A stretch of DNA of 64,000 nucleotides, taken from NCBI GenBank assembly GCA_020137815.1, contig CM035354.1:1612001-1676000 (forward strand), given 5' to 3'. This document shows positions 2,564-59,307 of the stretch, piece after piece. Numbering within the stretch: the stretch's first letter is position 1; each line of letters begins with the position of its first letter. Position numbers and translations under genes: made by a program. This DNA is from Hormiphora californensis. Its lineage: Eukaryota > Animalia > Ctenophora. The notes under the pieces are model-generated. The model was given only the letters and a program-made list of their open reading frames with translations, was not told the DNA's origin and searched no databases.

Positions 2564-2807
2564 TCGTTTGAAACGCACTTTAAGAGTTCGGGGCAAATGA
2601 TCGAACCCAATGTGAATGAGACTCATCGCGATTAACTCTTCATACGGTTACCCCCTTTCTCTCTTCGGCAGCTTCTCTTCGGCTGTTGGAAAGTGATGCC
2701 AATCGGTGTTGGGGTTAGTGAATTAAAAGAAGAACTTTAAGAGTTTGCGCGTTACAATGAATGCGACGCATAATTATTCGTGCGCGCGAAAACATTTCAA
2801 ATGCAAA

Positions 2808-2850
2808 AGTTTCAAACTTTTCAACACTACTTTAAACAAATTAATTTGAG
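2808..2850 (+). other. Spliced-leader (SL) exon-like sequence forming the retrotransposon 5' end
   Basis: AGTTTCAAACTTTTCAACACTACTTTAAACAAATTAATTTGAG (43 nt) matches my recollection of the ctenophore (Pleurobrachia) SL ending ...AATTTGAG; begins right after the left TSD and is followed by ATCTC, not GT. Confidence 0.75.
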
Positions 2851-2891
2851 ATCTCTTCCAACCCGGCCCTCGCGGTCGGTTAGGTTTAGTG

Positions 2892-5800
2892 ATGAAGAAA
2901 AGTACGAAGAGGAGAACGAACAAGACCACCGTTCCCCCTTCCTCGTCCTCGGATCCACGCTACAACTGCCCAGCATGTAATGTCTACTTGTACGAAGAAG
3001 ATGACATCCCCTGTGTAGCTTGTGACAATTGTAACGGTTGGTTCCATTTAAAGTGTGTTGGTATTCCGGACTCAGACTATGCCAAAGTTACTGCCAAACC
3101 TCACTGGTACTGTCCCAGCTGTATTAGGCTTCCAAACTTTATACCTGCAGCTCCCCTCAAGACATCATGGGGTAAGCTGTCAGGCCAAGCTCTTTCTGAT
3201 TCCTTCTCACGCCTCCTCGTCTCTGTTTCCTCTTTCCGTCCCAACCTTTTCAAGCTTCCTTCCGGAAGTTCCGGCAAGCAGTTTATAACTGAATGCACCC
3301 GGCTCATCAAGGAATGGAACTCTTCTTCTGGCCTTGAGAGTGTTGCAATAACAGCCATCCATCTCATGGGTCCTCTCCTATTGCAAAACCCTGGTAAAAA
3401 ATCCAAACCAAGTGAGCAATCGGCTGCCCTTCTCAGACGTTTACTCCTTTGGCAAGCTGGCGAATTTCACACTTTACTATCAGAGTGCATGGTTATTCAG
3501 TCCAGGTTACCTAAGTCTACAACATCAGACAACAGAAGGGGTTTTGTAAGGATGATGTTTACAGGGAGAGTCGGAGCTGCACTACGACTACTCAGTGCTA
3601 CTCCCTCTGCAGCCCTCGACATCACCCCCGAGGTGTTGGAAAACCTCAAGGAAAAGCACCCGGATGCTGCTCCTCTCAGTCCTGATCACCTCGTGTCTAC
3701 CCAGCTCCCTCCTTCTTTCGAACCCGCCATTTTTCATGACCTCAACTCGGATACCATAAGGCGAGCTGCTGCTGCCACAAAGGGTAGTGCCGGCCCAAGT
3801 GGTATGTCAGACGGCCTCTGGACCCGTATGCTCTGCAGTAAAGCTTTTAGAAAGGCTTCCGATGACCTTTCTCACGAAGTTGCCATCATGACGAGACGTC
3901 TATGCACGGTTTATGTCGACCCCAGCTCACTAACTGCGTTCCTGTCCTGCAAGCTAATTGCCTTGGACAAGAATCCTGGGATAAGGCCTATCGGTGTTGG
4001 CGAGGTTCTCCGTCGGATAGTAGGTCGAGCAGTAGCACAACATCTCAAACCCGAAATCATTCAGGCTGCCGGCCCCTTACAACTCGCTGCCGGCCAGCAA
4101 GGCGGAGCTGAAGCTGCTGTTCACTCAATGAGAGAATTCTATGCAGACGAGGGTACTGAGGCTGTTCTCCTAGCTGATGCTCGTAACGCGTTCAACATCC
4201 TAAACCGGCAAACCGCCCTGGTGAACCTCAGGCACCTTTGTCCAGCTCTCTCCATCTTTGCGATAAACCTTTACCGTTTCCCAGTTCGTCTATATCTCTC
4301 CAACGGCACATTTATCCTCTCTGCAGAAGGCACCACCCAAGGGTGTAACATCGCCTCTCCTTTCTATTGTATCAGTCTTCGCCCTCTCATCGACAAACTG
4401 TCAAGGACTTCCCCAAAACAGATTTTTTACGCTGATGATGGAGCCTCTGCCGGTTCCCTAATCGGTGTGAGAGAATGGTGGGACGCTCTGGTCACCAACG
4501 GTCCCGGTTACGGCTACTTCCCAAGACCGGATAAGTCAGTATTAATCGTAAAACCAGAACACCTTGAAAAAGCAAAGTCGATCTTTTCAGACACTGCTGT
4601 AATCATCAAATCAGACGGCCACAGATACCTGGGCGCTCCTATTGGTACCTTAGATTACCAGCGGGAATATGTGGCCAAGGATGTTTGCCGCTGGGTAACG
4701 GATGTCACAGCGATCTCCAAAATTGCTGAAACTGAACCCCAGGCAGCATACTCGGCTTTCTGTATGGGGCTGTCAAAGAGATTTCTCTTTCTAATGAGGA
4801 CGACCCCGAACATCTCTGAGCTCTTCAGGCCCTTGGAGTCAACAATTTCATCTGTTCTCCTTCCAGCTATCCTCAACAATCACTTCACCCCTCTACACCG
4901 AGAACTGTTTTCCCTGCCTTGCAGAAACGGAGGACTTGGTATTGAAAATCCATGTGAAGTCGCGGATCTTGAGTATCAACGATCCCTTCATGCTACTGCA
5001 CCGCTCTCTCAGATTATTACTGAACAGAACATAAATATTACTGATGAGAGAGCGGTTGCTGTTGCTAAGGGGTTAAAAACAGCCAAGCAGGAAGTAATTC
5101 AGATGAAAAAAGAACACCATAAAAATCGTTTATCTGCTGTTTCCGACCAGCTAGCCCCAGACTATCGCAGACTCCATGATGAGCTTTGTAGACGTGGCTC
5201 TTCCACCTGGTTGACAACCCTTCCCTTGGAGGAACACGGCTTCAATCTCAACAAATCCGAGTTTCGTGATGCTCTTGCCCTGAGGTATGACCTTTCCCTT
5301 CGGGAGTTTCCCAACCATTGTGCTTGTGGTAAACCAAACTCCATTGAACACTGTCTAACTTGTGCTCGTGGAGGCTATGTGCATCTCAGGCACAACCAGA
5401 TTCGCGATCTAACTGCCAATCTTCTAGTGGAGGCTGGGTGTACGGATGTTAAAGTGGAGCCCCATCTTCTCCCTCTAACTGGTGAGACTCTCCAATATGC
5501 CTCCGCGATCACCAATGATGAGGCACGTCTTGATGTCTCGGCTCGTGGTGTCTGGTCTGACTTATCAAAACTGTTCATTGATGTCCGCATCTTCAATTCT
5601 CGAGCCCCAACCAACAAATCATTGCCAGTCAACAAGGTTTTGAAGAAGCACGAGGACGAGAAGAAGCGTGCTTATGGAGAGCGTGTACTGCAGGTGGAGA
5701 AAAGCTCCTTCACACCAGCTGTTTTCTCTACCTCTGGAATCATGGGCGATGAGGCTGACAAACTTTACAAACAAATTGCCCACCTACTCTCAAAAAAGAC

Positions 5801-5972
5801 CAAACAGTCCTACCCCGATTGCATCCGGTATATCAGACAGAGACTATCTTTCTGCCTGTTAAAAACTCTTATCATTAGTCTCCGGGGTCATCGTGGCCAG
5901 AGCCCGAAGAGTTTTAGTGATCGCAATGACATTAACATTTTATACATGATTAAAAACAATAACCAGAATTAA
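2892..5972 (+). CDS. Retrotransposon polyprotein: PHD finger - reverse transcriptase - CCHC zinc knuckle - restriction-like endonuclease
   Basis: 1026 aa from first ATG. PHD CPAC..CVACDNCNGWFHLKC..WYCPSC; RT motifs RPIGVGEVLRR, DARNAFN, GTTQG, YADD, YLG; CACG..HCLTC; RHNQIRD, RLDV, FIDV, EKKRAY. Confidence 0.92.
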   Translation: MKKSTKRRTNKTTVPPSSSSDPRYNCPACNVYLYEEDDIPCVACDNCNGWFHLKCVGIPDSDYAKVTAKPHWYCPSCIRLPNFIPAAPLKTSWGKLSGQALSDSFSRLLVSVSSFRPNLFKLPSGSSGKQFITECTRLIKEWNSSSGLESVAITAIHLMGPLLLQNPGKKSKPSEQSAALLRRLLLWQAGEFHTLLSECMVIQSRLPKSTTSDNRRGFVRMMFTGRVGAALRLLSATPSAALDITPEVLENLKEKHPDAAPLSPDHLVSTQLPPSFEPAIFHDLNSDTIRRAAAATKGSAGPSGMSDGLWTRMLCSKAFRKASDDLSHEVAIMTRRLCTVYVDPSSLTAFLSCKLIALDKNPGIRPIGVGEVLRRIVGRAVAQHLKPEIIQAAGPLQLAAGQQGGAEAAVHSMREFYADEGTEAVLLADARNAFNILNRQTALVNLRHLCPALSIFAINLYRFPVRLYLSNGTFILSAEGTTQGCNIASPFYCISLRPLIDKLSRTSPKQIFYADDGASAGSLIGVREWWDALVTNGPGYGYFPRPDKSVLIVKPEHLEKAKSIFSDTAVIIKSDGHRYLGAPIGTLDYQREYVAKDVCRWVTDVTAISKIAETEPQAAYSAFCMGLSKRFLFLMRTTPNISELFRPLESTISSVLLPAILNNHFTPLHRELFSLPCRNGGLGIENPCEVADLEYQRSLHATAPLSQIITEQNINITDERAVAVAKGLKTAKQEVIQMKKEHHKNRLSAVSDQLAPDYRRLHDELCRRGSSTWLTTLPLEEHGFNLNKSEFRDALALRYDLSLREFPNHCACGKPNSIEHCLTCARGGYVHLRHNQIRDLTANLLVEAGCTDVKVEPHLLPLTGETLQYASAITNDEARLDVSARGVWSDLSKLFIDVRIFNSRAPTNKSLPVNKVLKKHEDEKKRAYGERVLQVEKSSFTPAVFSTSGIMGDEADKLYKQIAHLLSKKTKQSYPDCIRYIRQRLSFCLLKTLIISLRGHRGQSPKSFSDRNDINILYMIKNNNQN

Positions 5973-6471
5973 TTTATTATACCCAATTTATGTACAGATA
6001 AGATTGATTTCTATATCCATTTTACTAATTGAACCGGTACCCCGGCTTTCGAAAAAAATTTCAAATGCAAATCCAAAATTTCGCAATTTTCATCCATTTT
6101 TAACAAGTGGGTTGTTGTTTTTAACAAATCCTTAAAAAAAAGGTCTTTTTGATTTCCCCAAAATTTTACTTTAACGTTTCGTTTTTGTTTGGACACACAG
6201 TTTACTGGACACCGCCCCTGCTCTAAATCGGGGACTGCAGCAGCACCCAGTCATACCCCGGTCGAGGTGATCACTGCCTGAAATCTACCCTGCACTAAAA
6301 TAACCAACTAATGTGGCTAATAACCACTCAAACATTGTATTTATTTTGATTAATTCAAAGTTTATCTGATAAATCTCAAACCCTAAAAACAAATCATGTG
6401 CCAAAGGGCGGTCGGACAGTTCAAAAAATCCGACTTTAACTACTGTAACTATAATAGGATGGGTCGGTGAT

Positions 6472-8035: not shown

Positions 8036-8869
8036 ATGATACGAGTAGTGAGATGTTGCACTGGGACTGTTATCCGGCGAGCGGCACTGCATACTACTCC
8101 CCCTGCTACTGCTACTGAACAAACCACCCATTTCGGATTTCAGGACGTCCCCGAGGAGGAAAAAGAGGGCAAAGTTAGGGAAGTTTTCGAAAAAGTGGCA
8201 GACACCTATGATGTCATGAATGATGCCATGTCACTAGGTATGCACCGGCTCTGGAAGGACTGTTTTGTATCTCGGGCAGACCCCCAACCGGGATTTCAGT
8301 GTCTAGACGTGGCGGGTGGGACGGGTGACATCGCATTTAGAATCGCCCGGCACATGTCCAACATTAGTAAGGACCACGGGCCCGTGACCATCTGTGATAT
8401 TAACCCAGAGATGTTGAGGGTTGGGAGAGCACGTGCCGAACGGAACGGAACATCAGACCAGTTTGTGTGGGTGGAGGGGAATGCAGAGACCCTCAACTTT
8501 CCCGACTCCTCATTCGATCTGTACACTATAGCTTACGGTATCAGGAACTGCACCCACATTGATCGTGTTTTATCGGAGGCCCACAGGGTACTGAAACCTG
8601 GAGGGAGGTTCATGTGTCTCGAGTTTAGCGAGGTAACTCAACCTGTCCTGGGGAGTGTCTATGAGAAATACTCCTTTGGTGTTATCCCCGTGTTGGGACA
8701 TTTAGTGGCGGGAGATATGGAGAGTTATCAGTATCTGGTGGAGAGTATTAGGAGGTTTCCCAAGCAGGAGGAGTTTGCTGATATGATAGTGAAGGCTGGG
8801 TTTTCAGTTGTGGAGTTTGAGAATTTGACTTTTGGTGTGACCTCCATTCACTCTGGGTATAAGTTGTGA
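8036..8869 (+). CDS. COQ5: Mitochondrial 2-methoxy-6-polyprenyl-1,4-benzoquinol C-methyltransferase (UbiE/COQ5 family), intronless
   Basis: [75 protein letters not shown]; Arg-rich presequence-like N-terminus. Confidence 0.95.
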
Positions 8870-9457
8870 GCGAAGGAATATAATTATTTTGTTGTTAGGG
8901 AGGCCGAGATATTTGTAGTTTTTTTTACCAGAAACATCTTGAAAAACTAACTGAGTAAATATGAATTATGATTAGACGATTGTAATTCTATGTCAAAAAA
9001 AATTCGTCCCATATCGTACCAAAATTTGTGTATTTTCATTGTCCTTTTTTGTTAGACTATCTGAGAGCCCAGTCAAAATGCCAAAAAACTCCCCTTCTCC
9101 CATCCCAATGACCCCTAGCCGAAGCAAAGGCCAAAGCCCTATGGATTATTGAATCCCCTCACCCCCTAATGAATACCTTCACTCCCTACTGATTCCCATC
9201 AACCCGGCCTCCCACCCCTGTATTGAATCCTCTCCCTCCTGTTGAATCTTATCACCGCCTAACGACTTCGACTCCTCTTGTCCCCTTTGACTCATTTCCC
9301 TCTCTATTGAAACCTCCCACCCCATATTGGCTCCCTACCTCTCACCCCTATTGACGAGCAGAGCCCTTTCCCAGGAGCCTGAGCATCCCGGTAAATCGGG
9401 GTCTGACTGAATTCTATTTCAACTAAATTTAACCCAGTCTCCCATGTTTAGCAGTGC

Positions 9458-10692
<1,235 letters not shown>

Positions 10693-11032
10693 TTCAAATG
10701 CGGTCAATATACTCCACAAAAAAGATTGTAAAAAAATATTACCCAGTGTTCTACTTCACTTTACCCTACCTATTGTATAAATAAATTCTGCTCTTTCCTT
10801 ACTCGTGTATTCAACTTGGGTATGATATCCCTTCTTTCTTCTATCCTCCTGCGCTGTCTCTCAGTCTCATGTTATCGCGCGCGCTACGTTTAGTTCGGAA
10901 TGGGGGCCACCCCCTTCCCAAAAAGAGAGGGTGCACCGTACCCAAGTATTCAACCCAGTTCTGTTTCAACTAAATCCTGCCTTGTCTCCTATATTTAGCA
11001 GCACATATCTGGACCAGATACGACAACCAGAC

Positions 11033-12010
11033 ATGATGGGCACTACCAGGACTCCACCTGCAGCCGATACTATACAGTGGGGAGATCAGACCGGTATTGT
11101 ATTTTCTCCACGACCTTTCCTAAAAACAGAGCCGATCCTTATTGACCAACAACAACCAGTGAAAGCAGAACCAGCAGACAATGAAGATGTGAAGTGTGAG
11201 GTTAACTCTGGGTTTATCAAATGTGAACAGGAAGTTGCGTGTAAAGAGGATCCTGATTTGTTGACTGTTAAAACGGAACCAGTTGAATCGGTTCATATCA
11301 AGTCGTTGTCCGATTGTGGACCTGTTAAAACGGAGCCAGTTGAGTTTTCTTCCTTCCTTGATAATTCTGACACACCTCCTTCATCACTTCCACAAATTGG
11401 TGAGTTGTCCAGTTTCACTTATTACTAGGTAGTGTGTTGTTTTATCTGCAATTTTGACTTTCAATTTTCTGCCACAGGTGGAATACCAGCAGAAATCTTG
11501 ACGGACTCTGGAGAAAATGACGATAACGTTTCAGAAGATTGTGAAACTGAACTAACAGCTGGCCCCCGAGAAATAGTTGTCACCCCTCAACGTCCATACG
11601 TGTGTGATGTGTGTGAAAAAGGTTTTAGCTTTTCTAGTCGTCTAAAAGAGCACATGAGGACCCATACTTGGGAGACACCCTACAAATGTAAGGATTGTGG
11701 TAGAGGGTTCATTTATTCGGATAATCTAACAAAACACATGAAGACACATACTGATGAGCGTCCCTACAAATGTGAGGAGTGTGGGAAAGGGTTTGTTCGT
11801 CCAAGTTCTCTAACAACTCACATGAAGACCCATACTGGGGAGCGGCCCTACAAATGTAAGGATTGTGGTAGAGGGTTCACTCAATCAGGTAATCTAACAC
11901 AACACATGAGGATCCATACTGGGGAGCGGCCATACAAATGTAAGGAGTGTGGTGAAAGATTCACCCGGTCTAATATTCTTAATTTTCACCTGAAACGCCA
12001 TACTAGCTAA
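11033..12010 (+). CDS. C2H2 zinc-finger gene copy 2 (exons 11033-11399, 11478-12010), apparently intact, 5 fingers
   Basis: Same two-exon structure, phase-1 GT-AG intron, uninterrupted frame. Confidence 0.85.
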
Positions 12011-12650
12011 GAGGATATGCGTAATAGAATTAGCAATGTGCTTAGTGCTTACCGATTCGATATAATGTACTCGATGATTTTTATAAGCTTTCCTGATCCT
12101 ATCTTTGTCAATGAGAGGTCAAACTTGCTAAATCGATCGTTTTCCATTGAGTGTCTTTTGCTACCATTATAGTCAGATAACTAGAGAGCCCAAGATAGTT
12201 ACCAAAAACTCCTCTCACCCAATACTGACTCTTTATATCACCCCATTCTCACTCCCCTCACGGCTCACCCCCTCATCCATATTGAATCCTCCTAACCCTA
12301 AAGACAACTCTATTGACTTCTCTTACCCCATACTGCAACTGACACCGCCGCCCATTGATGCATTTCAACCTCTATTGAATCATCCCACTCCCTATTGATT
12401 ATCTACCCCTCTCCCCTATTGAATCCTCTTAAGCCCTACTGACAACCCCTTGTACGTATTATTTGATTGTCTTAATTTGTGTCCTATCCTATCCATACCC
12501 CTTCTATTGACAGGTTACCCAGTGTTCTACTTCACTTTACCCTACCCTACTTATTATCTAAATAAATTATGTTCTTTCCTTACCCTTACTTGTTTTTGAC
12601 CCAGTTCTATTTCAACTAAATCCTGCCTTGTCTCCCATATTTAGCAGTAC

Positions 12651-13907
12651 ATGGAACGACAACCAGACCGAATGGGCACTAACAGGACTCCACCTGCAGC
12701 CGATCCTATACAGTGGGGAGATCAGACTGGTATTGTGTTTTCTCCACGACCTTTCCTAAAAACAGAGCAGATCCTTGTTGACGAACAACCATCAGTGAAA
12801 ACAGAACCAGCAGACAATGAAGATGTGAAGTGTGAAGTTAACTCTGGGTTTATCAAATGTGAACAGGAAGTTGCGTGTAAAGAGGATCCTGATTTATTGA
12901 CTGTTAAAACGGAACCAGTTGAATTGGTTTATATCAAGTCATTGTCTGATTGTGGGCCTGTTAAAACGGAGCCAGTTGAGTTTCCTTCCTTCCTTGATAA
13001 TTCTGACACACCTCTTTCATCACTTTCACAAATTGGTGAGTTGTCCAGTTTTACTTATTACTAGGCGGTGTGTTGATGAAATCCCCTTCGTATGCTTAGT
13101 TAGCCGTGCTGATCGCCGCTAGTGTTATAGGGGTGAATGCGTCACCAACTAGTTGGTGTGTTGTTTTATCTACAATATTATCTTTCAATTTTCTCCCACA
13201 GGTGAAATACCAGCAGAAATCTTGATGGACTCTGGAGAAAAGGACGATTACATTTCAGAATGTTTTGAAGCAGAAATAACAGCTAGCACTAGCGAAATTA
13301 CGGACTCTGTAGAAAATGACGATTACGTTCCAGATGATTGTGAAACTGAACCAACAGCTAGCACTAGCAAAATTATTGTCACCCCTCAACGTCCATACGT
13401 GTGTGATGTGTGTGAAAAAGGTTTTAGCTTTTCTAGTAAATTAAAATTGCATATGCGGACTCATACTGGGGAGCAGCCCTACAAATGTAATGTTTGTGGT
13501 AGAGGATTCACTCTTTCGGATAGTCTAACAATAATTAAACACATGAAGACCCATACTGATGAGCGGCCCTACAAATGTAACTTTGTGGTAAAGGGTTCAC
13601 TCAATCAGGTAATCTAACAAACCACATTAGAACTCATACTGGAATGCGTCCCTACAAATGTAAGGAGTGTGGGAAAGGGTTTACTACTTCGAGTCAACTT
13701 AAATGTCATATTAGGACTCATACTGGGGAGCGGCCTTTCAAATGTAAGGAGTGTGGGAAAGGGTTTACTACTTCGGGTCACCTTAAATGTCATATTAGAA
13801 CTCATACTGGAGAGCAGCCCTACAAATGCATAGAGTGTGAGAAGTCATTCAGTGAGTCTGGTTCCCTCAAGAGACACATGAGAACCCATACTGGAGAGCG
13901 GACCTAA
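12651..13907 (+). pseudogene. C2H2 zinc-finger gene copy 3 (exons 12651-13035, 13202-13907) with a frameshift near 13580
   Basis: Finger array split between ORFs 13153-13617 and 13644-13907. Confidence 0.7.
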
Positions 13908-14237
13908 AAAAGAGTATAGAAAACGGTTAACCCAGACTAGTTTGGCAGTATATTACCCATACAAACTACCCAAACATCACTTGAGGATTTCGGAGACTGA
14001 TTTAAAAATAGCGTGTGAGGGTCAATAAACTCCACAACAAATATTGTAAAAATTTTTATTTGATTGTCTAAATGTGTGTCCAATCCTATTCATACCCCTT
14101 GCATTGACAAGTTACCCAGTGTTTTACTTAACTTTACCCTGCCCTACCTATTGTCTAAATATATTATGCTCTTGTTTTTAACCCAGTTCTATATCAACTA
14201 AATCCTGCCTTGTTATGTCTCCCATATTTAGCAGTGC

Positions 14238-16590
<2,353 letters not shown>

Positions 16591-54511: not shown

Positions 54512-56083
54512 TTAGCAATAAGCTTTCTTAAAGAGGTAAGTTTTAAGTTGCTGTTTAAACACATCGACAGATTCACTTTCTCGCAGGATTTTCGGCAACT
54601 CATTCCACAATTTAGGTGCACTAATACTAAAGGCTCTACTAGTGGATGTGTACTTGTGTGTGTATGGTTTGTGGAGGAGTGTGCTATCCTCGTCTGCCCT
54701 GACTGCCTTGACCTTTGGCTTCCGGAGGGGGATGAGGTTGGAGATGTAGGGGGGAGCCATTCCATTGATGGATTTGTATGTTAGTAAGCAGATTTTGAAG
54801 ATGATTCTGCTTTTGATCGGAAGGAAGTGTAGGTCTTTCCGCATCTGGGTCACTCCTCTCCTCTTTCTTGTTCCATAGACGAACCGTACAGCACTGTTTT
54901 GGACCTTTTGGAGGCGGTTTAAGTCAGATTCTGTGGCACCATAGAGTAGGGCATTTCCATAGTCTAGGCGAGAGTGTATTAACGAATGCACTAGCTTGAT
55001 TTTCAGTTGCCTGGGAAGTTTTCTAGCTATCCTCCACAGATTCAGAAGTTGCATATTACATGCTTGGACAATTTTCGAGATATGGCTTGCCATTGAGAGG
55101 GTGGGATCGAGCCAAATACCGAGATTACGGGCACTTGTCGTTGATTCGATTTCCGTAGACTGTACAATTGGACTTTCGTCTTTTTCAATCACTAATCCAG
55201 TTGGCCCAGGAGTGCGGTCGGCTTTGTGGTTGAGTATCAGAATTTCCGTTTTACTGGCATTTAGCTTGAGGTAGTTTTGCTTCATCCATTGCTTGATGTC
55301 ACTGATACAATTTTGTAATTTATCCACAACAAAGTCAAAGGTTTCCGGCCTAAAACTAGTATAGATCTGGGTGTCGTCAGCGAAGAGGTGAATGTTAAGA
55401 CCATGCTTTTCCGCAATCGACTGGAGCTCTTTGGTATACATAATGAAGAGAATAGGCCCTAGGATGCTACCCTGCGGCACACCAATATCCACCTCTATCG
55501 ATCTTGATCGTGCATCTCCAATTTGTACCGAGGTGGACCGACCTGTGAGATATGATTTGAACCAGGCGAGAGCAGTATCTTCTATTCCGTAGTCCGTCCG
55601 CATCTTCTTTAGTAGTTTGCTGTGTTGAACTGTGTCAAATGCTGCAGATAGGTCCAGCAGTAGTAGCACAGCCTTTGACTTCTTATCAAGCAGTAGCAGA
55701 AGATCGTTAACAACTTTTAGTGTTGCAGTCTCACAACTATGGTGTTTGCGGTAAGCAGATTGAACTCCCGATAGCAACTGATGGCTCTCTAAATGCTCGG
55801 TCAACTGTAAAGATACACATTTCTCAATGATCTTTGACACAAATGGTAGATTACTGATCGGGCGGTAGCTGCCAAGATCTTCAGGGTCAAGACCTTTTCC
55901 TTTGTATGCCGGCCTGATGACTGCTTCTTTGAACTTGGTAGGGAAAATTCCTGTCTTTAGACTGTCGTTGATGATTTTGGAGATAGCCGGAAGAAGCTCA
56001 ATAAGAACAGAAGATACCATTGTGGATGGCATCGGGTCAAGAGAACAAGACTTTTTCTGCATTCCACGGATAATTTTGAGCAA
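54512..56083 (-). CDS. LINE reverse transcriptase (L2/CR1 group), N-terminally truncated
   Basis: SCSLDP, YRPISNLPFVSKIIEK, QSAYRKHHSCETA, LLDLSAAFDTV, GVPQGSILGP, FADDTQIY, SRLDYGN, APKLWNELP. Confidence 0.9.
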   Translation of the reverse strand: MLKIIRGMQKKSCSLDPMPSTMVSSVLIELLPAISKIINDSLKTGIFPTKFKEAVIRPAYKGKGLDPEDLGSYRPISNLPFVSKIIEKCVSLQLTEHLESHQLLSGVQSAYRKHHSCETATLKVVNDLLLLLDKKSKAVLLLLDLSAAFDTVQHSKLLKKMRTDYGIEDTALAWFKSYLTGRSTSVQIGDARSRSIEVDIGVPQGSILGPILFIMYTKELQSIAEKHGLNIHLFADDTQIYTSFRPETFDFVVDKLQNCISDIKQWMKQNYLKLNASKTEILILNHKADRTPGPTGLVIEKDESPIVQSTEIESTTSARNLGIWLDPTLSMASHISKIVQACNMQLLNLWRIARKLPRQLKIKLVHSLIHSRLDYGNALLYGATESDLNRLQKVQNSAVRFVYGTRKRRGVTQMRKDLHFLPIKSRIIFKICLLTYKSINGMAPPYISNLIPLRKPKVKAVRADEDSTLLHKPYTHKYTSTSRAFSISAPKLWNELPKILRESESVDVFKQQLKTYLFKKAYC

Positions 56084-56555
56084 ATCTTCATCAGTGACTG
56101 GCTGAAAGCATATTAGTTTGGGAGGTGATGTAGCACGGCTAGGGATATCAGGAGCAGGAGCAGGAGGGCTAGGGATAACAGGAACAGGAGGTCCAGGGAG
56201 AGCAGGAGCAGGAGGGCTCCGTCATTTCGCAACCAATTTTAAAAATCTTGGGCTCATTAGAAAGATAATCTCAAGCTCTTTCCAAAGAGTTATTATCCCC
56301 CAAATTTATAAAACCTTTACACCCGCACGTGCACGCCCCAAGCCCCACCAACCATCCCTAACAACACGTCAATTTTCCACGTGCAAGCCCTAAAACCCCC
56401 CTCCCCAAATTTTGTCTTGCAAGGTTCTCTGCTTTATAATATAGATTCGCGCGCAATTTTCGTTGAATGTACGCTGCAGAGTAGTGCCGCGCGCCGGTCT
56501 GGAATTTAAATATCCAAAAAAACAACACGAACCAAACTTTACTTTCACTTGTAAA

Positions 56556-57696: not shown

Positions 57697-58098
57697 ATAA
57701 GGAACCATAATAAAGTTCAAGAGCCTCCAAGAGCGCACCCCATCCAAGAGAGACCAAAATCAAGAGCGCACCACAACCAAGAGAGACCAAAATCAAGAGC
57801 ACACCACAATCAAGAGAGACCAAAATCAAGAGCACACCACAATCAAGAGTGCACCACAATCAAGAGAGCTCCCTATCCAGATGTGGTGCGCTCTTGAATT
57901 TGGTCTCTCTTGATTGTGGTGCGCTCTTGATTTGGTCTCTCTTGATTGTGGTGTGCTCTTGATTTTGGTCTCTCTTGATTGTGGTGTGCTCTTCACTCTT
58001 GATTTTGGTCTCTCTTGATTGTGGTGCGCTCTTGATTTTGGTCTCTCTTGGATGGGGTGCGCTCTTGGAGGCTCTTGAACTTTATTATGGTTCCTTAT
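57697..58098. mobile_element. Foldback element whose arms are built from ~30-bp tandem units
   Basis: ATAAGGAACCATAATAAAGTTCAAGAGCC... and exact reverse complement; internal CAAGAGAGACCAAAATCAAGAGCACACCACAAT units. Confidence 0.85.
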
Positions 58099-58274
58099 TA
58101 GTCTCCGGGGTCATCGTGGCCAGAGCCCGAAGAGTTTTAGTGATCGCAATGACATTAACATTTTATACATGATTAAAAACAATAACCAGAATTAATTTAT
58201 TATACCCAATTTATGTACAGATAAGATTGATTTCTATATCCATTTTACTAATTGAACCGGTACCCCGGCTTTCG
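58097..58274 (+). mobile_element. 3'-terminal fragment of the same CRE-like retrotransposon
   Basis: Apparently identical to 5874-6051, ending ...GAACCGGTACCCCGGCTTTCG. Confidence 0.92.
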
Positions 58275-59307
58275 CAAAAAGAAGCCACTCTTGCTGTGTC
58301 CCTCTCCCATATTCTCCGTGTGCCAACACAACACTATAATGGTACACCCGCACAGTCGTGTTCCTTTTATATCTCGTTCTTTCACTTCGCGAACCGTCTT
58401 TGAAAAGCGCTGCCTTATCCCGGGGGCCAGCAACGTTTGCCAAGAACCGTCTGCGTTCTGAAGCCGTTTCCTAGCTATGATCTGGGTGTTTAAAGGCTTT
58501 TTTACAGGCATGTTCACAGATGCACACTGCCAAAAAGTATACTGCACTAAAATGGTTCGAACCACCAAAACACTCCACCATTTTTGGCTAATTCAAAGTT
58601 TATCCGATAGGAATTCTCAAGCCCTAACTCCAACCGAAACCCCAGCCCTAACCCTAACCCTACTTTAGCCCTAACCCTAAAAACCGTGAGTGCTGACACT
58701 TAAAACACGCCGATTATAACGTTTCCCTCTGCGTTTTAAGTTTTGACTTTTGACGGTGAAGCATCTGGCCTCCGTGCTTCAATGATCAGTCATCAGCTTA
58801 CCAAGCTTGTGTTGCGTTGACTGCTGTTGCCTCAGAGATGCTTTAAGTCAATCCGCCGTAATAAAGTCTAAATTTAATTCGCGTGAGAATTGTGGGCTGC
58901 GTTCAGTTCTACAGTGACCTCGTGCATGTCACTAGTTTGCCTTGTTCGACCCTCCTTCCCCGCGCCTCGTCAGTCACTGTCTGTTGAATCTCAACTTCAT
59001 ATATTACTTCCTAGGGTAACATGGTATAAAACTGTTGATTGAGCCGCCACAGGCTCCTTCCAGAAACAAAAATGAGTGATTTCGGACAGCCAAAAATGCG
59101 GAATAAGAAGACGCGTAGGACACGTGTCATTAAACGTGAAATGTATTCTCGCCGTGACTTCAAAGGTTCGATTCTACCATATGCTTTTCTCTCTCTCACT
59201 ATCTATATCTTGCTCTACCTCTCACTCTACCTCGTTCTCTTCTTCTCTCTTCTCTCTTCTTCTCTCTTGTAACTTGTTCTCTCTCTCTCTTGTTCTCTCT
59301 CACCCAG

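Follow-up and report, generated by a model that had tools for sequence, protein, structure and literature searches.

The 64-kb window analysed here, a stretch of 64,000 nucleotides from the ctenophore Hormiphora californensis (assembly GCA_020137815.1, contig CM035354.1, positions 1,612,001 to 1,676,000, forward strand), contains a retrotransposon without long terminal repeats (a non-LTR element) whose first bases are a copy of the host spliced leader (SL). The element comprises a 5' untranslated region (UTR), one open reading frame (ORF) for a reverse transcriptase (RT) with a restriction-like endonuclease (RLE), and a short 3' end, and it is enclosed by a target-site duplication (TSD) that also takes in the SL (Table 1). 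The TSD 14-mer is present in the window as two exact copies only, abutting both element ends, and in a chance control an exact stretch of at least 14 nt was shared by 4 of 2000 random pairs of 60-nt window segments. The TSD and the 5' end of the SL share a 7-mer, and within the SL the dinucleotide AG is found only at SL positions 1 and 42. An earlier sequence-only reading of this DNA had given the coordinates of the element, its TSDs, the 43-nt head, the 41-nt UTR, the 1026-aa ORF and the A6 tail, all of which hold. Its account of the UTR was right in length and overlooked two TAGs, the second of which (ending at 2889) is acceptor-like and lies 2 nt upstream of the ATG. Folding of the 5' UTR was not significant in three tests (z = -0.1, -1.6 and -1.4, of which -1.6 is for the 41-nt UTR with the small hairpin). 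The second copy of the element shows no clear TSD, and its flanks are unrelated to those of the first.

Table 1. Features of the SL-headed element and of its second copy, in window positions.
Feature	Position	Strand	Remarks
Left TSD, 14 nt	2794..2807	+	exact match with 6058-6071, with no further matching base at either end
Complete 43-nt copy of the ctenophore SL exon; first bases of the element	2808..2850	+	
Terminal AG of the SL copy, candidate trans-splice acceptor of GAG type	2849..2850	+	closes a 40-nt AG-free stretch
41-nt 5' UTR; small hairpin at 2863-2879, two TAGs that end at 2883 and 2889	2851..2891	+	
Single stop-free ORF, 1026 aa: PHD finger, non-LTR RT, CCHC knuckle and RLE	2892..5972	+	
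PHD finger (aa 26-77)	2967..3122	+	PF00628, E 1.9e-7, above cut-off
Segment of the RT core (aa 362-517, YADD at its end)	3975..4442	+	PF00078, E 1.2e-5, short of the curated cut-off
CCHC-type knuckle, RHN motif and RLE-type D..D..K residues (aa 810-928)	5319..5675	+	conserved in the alignment of relatives and against a SLACS-named protein
79-nt 3' UTR and A6 tail (six A's at 6052-6057)	5973..6057	+	common to the second copy
Right TSD	6058..6071	+	exact 14-nt match with 2794-2807
Second, 5'-truncated copy (3' end of the ORF, 3' UTR, A5)	58097..58280	+	184 nt at 99.5% identity

The search for relatives of the encoded protein yielded 161 homologous proteins out of 7988 candidates. The nearest nine are 46-80% identical and are encoded on contigs of 3.3-4.1 kb; contigs of the nearest relatives are about as long as the element itself (3.25-3.7 kb), one of 3258 nt holding a 1028-aa ORF. 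An alignment of 13 rows shows conservation of the RT, CCHC and RLE-type motifs. Residues 350-999 align with a SLACS-named protein from Diplonema (25% identity, E 2e-30), and the best Foldseek matches of the predicted fold (mean pLDDT 72.8) are R2 proteins (E 1.5e-16). An RT tree of 22 rows, made up without R2, NeSL and R4 rows, separated the window RT and one SLACS-named row from four APE-type RTs (100/100), at a node where long branches meet. A sequence search of the PDB gave PHD-type matches only among the best 60 of 143. The order RT-CCHC-endonuclease within the ORF, the A6 tail with a 14-nt TSD and a 5'-truncated copy sharing the 3' end identify the element as an RLE-type non-LTR retrotransposon related to SLACS/CRE, and it is young, intact and dispersed. 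Among viral contigs, none of eight candidate relatives was confirmed. An SL 12-mer was absent from the 12 examined of 21 relatives in prokaryotic genome bins, whose element ends are not fixed and which are therefore uninformative on UTR length. These 21 CRE-like eukaryotic elements (L043-L063), assigned to genomes of prokaryotic species and in some cases carried by contigs of 0.7-1.6 Mb, are likely mis-binned host DNA.

The leader published for Hormiphora californensis has 44 nt, and the head at 2808-2850 is identical to its last 43 (PMC8527503). It also matches 43/43 nt of the exon in the metagenome locus L027, a tandem array in which SL RNA genes alternate with 5S rRNA genes in a 778-bp unit (positions 693-1513). 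In the L027 gene the exon is followed by GTAAG and preceded by C, and from this preceding base the SL likely starts at the A of 2808, so that the window would hold the whole exon. Furthermore, the 3' 27-mer of the window SL heads 30 mRNA-like metagenome contigs, and these matches support the proposal that the 43-mer is the host SL. The Hormiphora leader has been described on 56% of Iso-Seq reads and in 718 genomic copies (PMC8527503).

One way to explain an SL in this position is SL-gene targeting, in which a master element residing at the exon end of an SL RNA gene shares the transcript made from the SL promoter, the window copy being an off-target daughter. The relationship of the protein to SLACS/CRE, a clade that inserts in trypanosomatid SL genes (PMC12278014), and the 7-mer common to TSD and SL would fit such an origin, which we nevertheless regard as very unlikely. 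The window matches the SL/5S repeat of L027 over the 43-nt exon only, with the TSD lying outside the SL, and continues after the SL with ATCTC instead of the GTAAG donor of the L027 gene, so that it does not qualify as an SL RNA gene; the flanks are not SL genes. An Rfam scan located no 5S rRNA in the 64-kb window, and no SL 14-mer occurs elsewhere in it. The second copy lies in unrelated flanks, and unrelated LINEs (long interspersed nuclear elements) of APE type show the same exact junction, as described below.

A scan of metagenome contigs with the exact last 27 nt of the SL, in which classes were assigned by reading the ORFs, yielded 42 loci: 30 mRNA-like contigs, with the SL at most 7 nt from the contig start and a host-like ORF, the SL/5S gene array L027, and 11 element-like loci. 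Eight of the 11 are two-ORF LINEs of APE type. Pfam matches to APE and RT were obtained in L011, L012, L019 and L042 and to APE in L024, and L006, L026 and L039 were assigned by homology to the first four. With the window protein as query, tblastn returned no match in any of the 42 loci; the 11 loci and the window share the SL alone, and the loci may derive from other ctenophores. Two DNA-like assemblies contributed 11 of the loci, comprising 10 element-like loci, one SL gene and no host mRNA copy. The SL pattern gave no matches in viral contigs or in the genome contigs searched.

In all 12 element-like sequences (the window and the 11 loci) the junction falls exactly at the end of the SL exon. 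The retained SL lengths are 43, 43, 42, 42, 42, 41, 41, 41, 40, 38, 35 and 28 nt, that is, the SL is complete in two elements and lacks 1-15 of its 5' bases in ten, and 136 nt of the 11 loci match the SL outside the 27-mer used for the search. Eight flanks of at least 15 nt matched neither each other nor the SL gene repeat (three flanks below 15 nt were excluded). Among five related elements, 35-58 of the first 60 aligned UTR columns after the SL are identical, their ORF1s being 31-85% identical. Tandem SL relics were found in none of the 12 elements and none of the 30 mRNA-like contigs. Judged by these sequences, at least two unrelated LINE classes in ctenophores carry SL heads; the scan, blind to decayed or SL-less copies, shows such heads to be common without showing them to be universal.

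Additional observations concern individual loci. The single-ORF, SL-headed loci L020, L037 and L040 were not counted as LINEs, as they gave no Pfam family above cut-off and L040 matched only unnamed Atlas clusters; L040 (499-1640) ends in (TAA)n, L020 and L040 are 27% alike, and all three may be non-autonomous ORF1-only elements. L037 starts SL-GATG and L020 SL-TTTTAG-GAT, a difference that a single use of a downstream acceptor might have left. L024, an SL-headed APE LINE with 351 nt of flank upstream, comes from an assembly whose other six hits are mRNA-like, and possibly represents a transcript reading through a genomic SL head or DNA carry-over. In the window itself, positions 54515-56221 (minus strand) hold a 5'-truncated RT ORF whose identity to the SL-headed APE LINEs, in their ORF2, is 38-43%. 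The 718 leader copies and the 'shared first exons' of 35-48 nt described in Hormiphora (PMC8527503) overlap the 28-43-nt span of the SL heads, and many of them may be retroelement heads.

The same family was followed in sequencing runs of two organisms, A and B. Part of the element is present in 20 of 22 listed runs, 11 of them from these organisms; four runs were mapped, all consisting of assembled contigs, which drop rare forms, and guessed to be DNA. Marine metagenome runs with shares of 0.05-0.13 form no part of the evidence. The 3' junction of the element with the window flank was recovered in three organism A samples. A contig of organism B (run X10) carries 26 nt from the end of the SL linked, at 3020, to the element's 5' part in a diverged form, at a depth of 33 compared with 44-52 in neighbouring body contigs. 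That this contig runs unbroken from SL to element implies that no alternative 5' end is common in that run, rare forms being dropped. Between 28 and 33 contigs per run leave the SL 3' end at 2850 in 4/4 runs, with a mutual agreement of 0.40-0.42, and this discordance indicates that SL copies precede many different sequences in these runs. Contig depth increases toward the element 3' end in 4/4 runs. The depth of the body relative to the 3' flank is about 2x in X1, 2-4x in X4 and 7-14x in X5, a hint of several near-full-length copies that we did not use as evidence, depth being no copy number. No empty-site joint was among those listed in 4/4 runs, although contigs cannot show absence.

Two further features of these runs may be noted. 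The element body of organism B is about 97-98% identical to the window (3020-5600), its 5' part is far more diverged and its flank is not shared, which possibly reflects 5' exchange between subfamilies or recent transfer. In X4 and X5, a contig links the element at 5575 (5569-5575) to the SL through nine other letters, likely an SL-headed insertion inside another copy.

Taken together, the SL heads that recur in this family in organism B, and those of unrelated LINEs inserted at sites without mutual resemblance, make copying from SL-bearing RNA a trait and not an accident. The sequence-only reading had proposed that this copy was reverse-transcribed from an SL-trans-spliced RNA, and the recurrence of SL heads upholds the proposal for more than a one-off. 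A processed copy made once only, a chance insertion next to a stray SL or an assembly chimera might be suspected from the single full-length copy in the window, from the fact that no single contig spans the whole stretch, and from the abundance and dispersal of SL copies (718 in PMC8527503; heterogeneous loose ends in the runs). Such explanations are already largely refuted by the perfect TSD enclosing the SL, the 3' junction in three organism A samples, the SL join in organism B and the 11 further SL-headed element-like loci, and we hold them to be extremely improbable.

We conclude that SL-bearing RNA is very probably a normal template for several ctenophore LINE lineages. The exact junction at the exon end, the position of the TSD outside the SL and the small, variable losses at the 5' end would all result if a trans-spliced RNA were reverse-transcribed as far as the cap, given what is known of target-primed reverse transcription (TPRT) and SL splicing. 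Since a LINE spreads only via RNA, an SL-headed lineage must either regenerate from copies that bear the SL or maintain masters with an outron. Renewal in each cycle is the simplest account of a host SL that stays perfect in unrelated lineages next to UTRs that drift, and, with no tandem relics and AG only at SL positions 1 and 42, any renewal must use the terminal AG.

Of the mechanisms considered, re-splicing at the terminal AG of the genomic SL copy is the one that we favour, at about even odds. In the cycle that we propose, a pre-mRNA would begin with the leader copy or upstream of it, through read-through or by way of a promoter within the UTR. The leader DNA would play the part of an outron's end, with a new SL joined at its last AG. 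The product would be a full-length capped RNA with a complete leader, even from a parent copy short of a few 5' bases. The RT/RLE protein would then copy the spliced RNA by TPRT as far as the cap, giving the order TSD-SL-UTR-ORF-A-tail-TSD. The canonical YAG nearer the ATG could act as an alternative acceptor that yields a UTR-less RNA, and the UTR would be kept for a function of its own.

Several observations weigh against re-splicing at the terminal AG. GAG is the least-used type of 3' splice site. The SL copy had been described as ending T-rich, a description that has to be corrected: its last 20 nt are AT-rich and not pyrimidine-rich, with a pyrimidine fraction of 0.50 at -5 to -20 of the terminal AG, compared with 0.75 at the inferred acceptor of the neighbouring COQ5 gene. 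A YAG lies between SL and ORF in 11 of the 12 elements, L037 being without one, and UTRs of 145-215 nt persist despite a stronger downstream YAG. Free splicing of read-through RNA should strip the UTR within few cycles, and its persistence makes a functional UTR probable. Furthermore, the exact-27-mer scan could not show decayed SL heads or SL-less full-length copies, and the evidence for a start at the SL comes from the window copy, organism B and other families, not from the other near-full-length copies of organism A.

The downstream sites can be described more closely. In 8/12 elements a YAG lies at most 6 nt from the ATG (seven by pattern and L026 by eye), and TTTYAG directly follows the SL in three loci. 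Among the APE relatives, 5/7 carry GGTGTTTTAG one base upstream of the ATG, and in L019 and L026 the YAG is at most 6 nt away. Host mRNA-like contigs have their ATG 1-9 nt after the SL in 17 of 30 cases, a spacing by which the YAGs near element ATGs look like ordinary acceptors. A GT is found 6-9 nt upstream of the ATG-proximal AG in the window and five APE relatives, and these are poor matches to the GTAAG of the SL gene. The UTR thus probably has its own function, to judge from its persistence, and may be a promoter, which weakens the idea of an element without an internal promoter. The sequence-only reading had supposed that neither promoter nor ribozyme was needed. As regards the ribozyme this agrees with the Rfam results, which gave no match to an HDV-like (hepatitis delta virus-like) ribozyme at gathering score in the 64-kb window or in 14 loci and only three chance hits at 2600-3100 (E 5.5-8.9); as regards the promoter it is doubtful, as UTRs and downstream YAGs persist. 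An AG-free zone after the SL (22-36 nt, 8/12 elements) was considered as evidence and rejected, since seven of the eight are related. The collection of cis-acceptors from the zinc-finger genes of the window gave one site and was non-informative.

The conserved acceptors also bear on a different account, in which each lineage acquired the leader a single time and has since kept it as a fixed part. An internal promoter in the SL DNA or the UTR would start transcription at the first base of the leader, the unspliced RNA would be the template, and the YAG-spliced mRNA would be a translated dead end. An SL exon reportedly acts as a promoter element in Ascaris, a point that our literature look-ups did not confirm. 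The canonical acceptor beside the ATG in 8/12 elements and the T-rich, outron-like UTRs of the APE group (T 0.29-0.41) agree with such a fixed head. Complete SL heads exist (2/12), so selection for complete copies could offset truncation, and trypanosomatid LINEs do use an internal promoter with unspliced RNA (PMC1874656). However, selection would have to preserve the host SL base for base in a number of unrelated lineages whose adjacent UTR drifts, and 10/12 copies are short of 1-15 5' bases that they could not restore. For these reasons we rate a fixed head as rather unlikely, although less so than the other alternatives.

If the SL-headed copies do not renew themselves, masters with their own upstream promoter and outron could be renewed by unspliced RNA, the SL-headed insertions being frequent and mostly dead-end daughters of the spliced RNA. 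The SL-pattern scan is blind to SL-less masters, contigs drop rare variants, and loose ends are known only among those listed, so masters of this kind could have escaped the analysis. Nevertheless, the organism B contig runs from the SL into the element unbroken, 5/7 element contigs of one assembly end at most 38 nt upstream of the SL, and the contigs of the relatives leave little room for a long 5' end (3258 nt for the 1028-aa ORF). We therefore judge outron-bearing masters unlikely, more so than a one-time capture.

Re-splicing at the SL copy, if it takes place, suggests a wider possibility, which we put forward only tentatively and with more doubt than confidence: several unrelated ctenophore LINE lineages may have converged on the SL as their 5' end. 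The genomic leader copy would be its own trans-splice acceptor, whereby every insertion could remake a full-length capped template out of any transcript overlapping it, without a promoter or ribozyme of its own, and a large part of the hundreds of dispersed 'leader loci' of ctenophore genomes could be retrotransposon heads.

Other features of the window include a 32-nt satellite with a strong G/C strand skew (1-1487) and, directly upstream of the element, two inverted-repeat elements resembling miniature inverted-repeat transposable elements, at 2173-2394 (46-nt arms) and 2413-2563 (perfect 28-nt arms), the latter with very high contig depth. Downstream, a single-exon COQ5/UbiE methyltransferase gene at 8036-8869 has a pyrimidine-rich, acceptor-like site 2 nt before its ATG, and a tandem cluster of about four related C2H2 zinc-finger genes extends over 9400-16550.

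LINEs must regenerate their exact 5' end in every cycle, for which two solutions are known, namely an internal promoter and a ribozyme that cleaves itself. R2 frees its 5' end with a ribozyme, and NeSL-1 targets SL1 genes. Like both of these, the window element is an RLE-type non-LTR element with a single ORF, and R2 proteins are the best matches of its predicted fold; R2 itself targets 28S rDNA (PMC13188248). The CRE clade, with SLACS, CZAR and CRE1/CRE2 of trypanosomatids, inserts into SL RNA genes (PMC12278014). The window element shares with them a single ORF with RT and RLE, zinc-binding motifs, an A tail and a TSD (PMC12278014), and differs in holding the SL exon inside itself and its TSD, in its dispersed site and in its N-terminal PHD finger. 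Membership in this SL-gene-targeting group was rejected, as there is no insertion in an SL gene (exon-only match, no 5S in the window, second copy elsewhere).

Dinoflagellate retrogenes with SL relics likewise have a genomic SL copy at the 5' end of a retroposed sequence, and they set a precedent for splicing onto such a copy anew. In those retrogenes the copy is trans-spliced again at an internal AG and tandem relics accumulate (PMC12014239); unlike these passive sequences, the ctenophore elements are autonomous, with their own RT and endonuclease, and carry a single SL (relics in 0/12). The trypanosome LINEs L1Tc and ingi must likewise preserve a full 5' end where the host trans-splices its RNAs, and rely on a 77-nt internal promoter, an HDV-like ribozyme and unspliced RNA (PMC1874656, PMC3185411), whereas in the window element the SL itself comes first and Rfam gave no ribozyme match. 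In Hydra, the SL is found on about 30% of long reads from transposable elements (PMC12220107), another case of animal transposon RNAs using host trans-splicing, described in the passages of that paper at the RNA level only and without SL-headed genomic copies or a cycle.

The sequence-only reading knew of no earlier description of such an arrangement for a dispersed element. None appeared in the titles and abstract openings returned by full-text searches, a body of literature with most subscription papers and repeat-database reports outside it. Term look-ups in the ctenophore retroelement papers PMC13188248, PMC5035012 and PMC10886601 gave no mention of spliced leaders, and the passages of PMC7986045, PMC12460157, PMC3229502, PMC10161547 and PMC1657053 contain nothing on SL-headed elements. 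The proposed cycle, if true, offers a reading of the 718 leader copies and of the 35-48-nt 'shared first exons' in Hormiphora (PMC8527503), and it predicts the same pattern in other trans-splicing animals. Use of the SL would then be a third solution to 5'-end renewal, by way of host RNA processing, and the opposite of the avoidance of splicing argued for L1Tc, whose authors reasoned that the element would lose its 5' end through splicing (PMC1874656).

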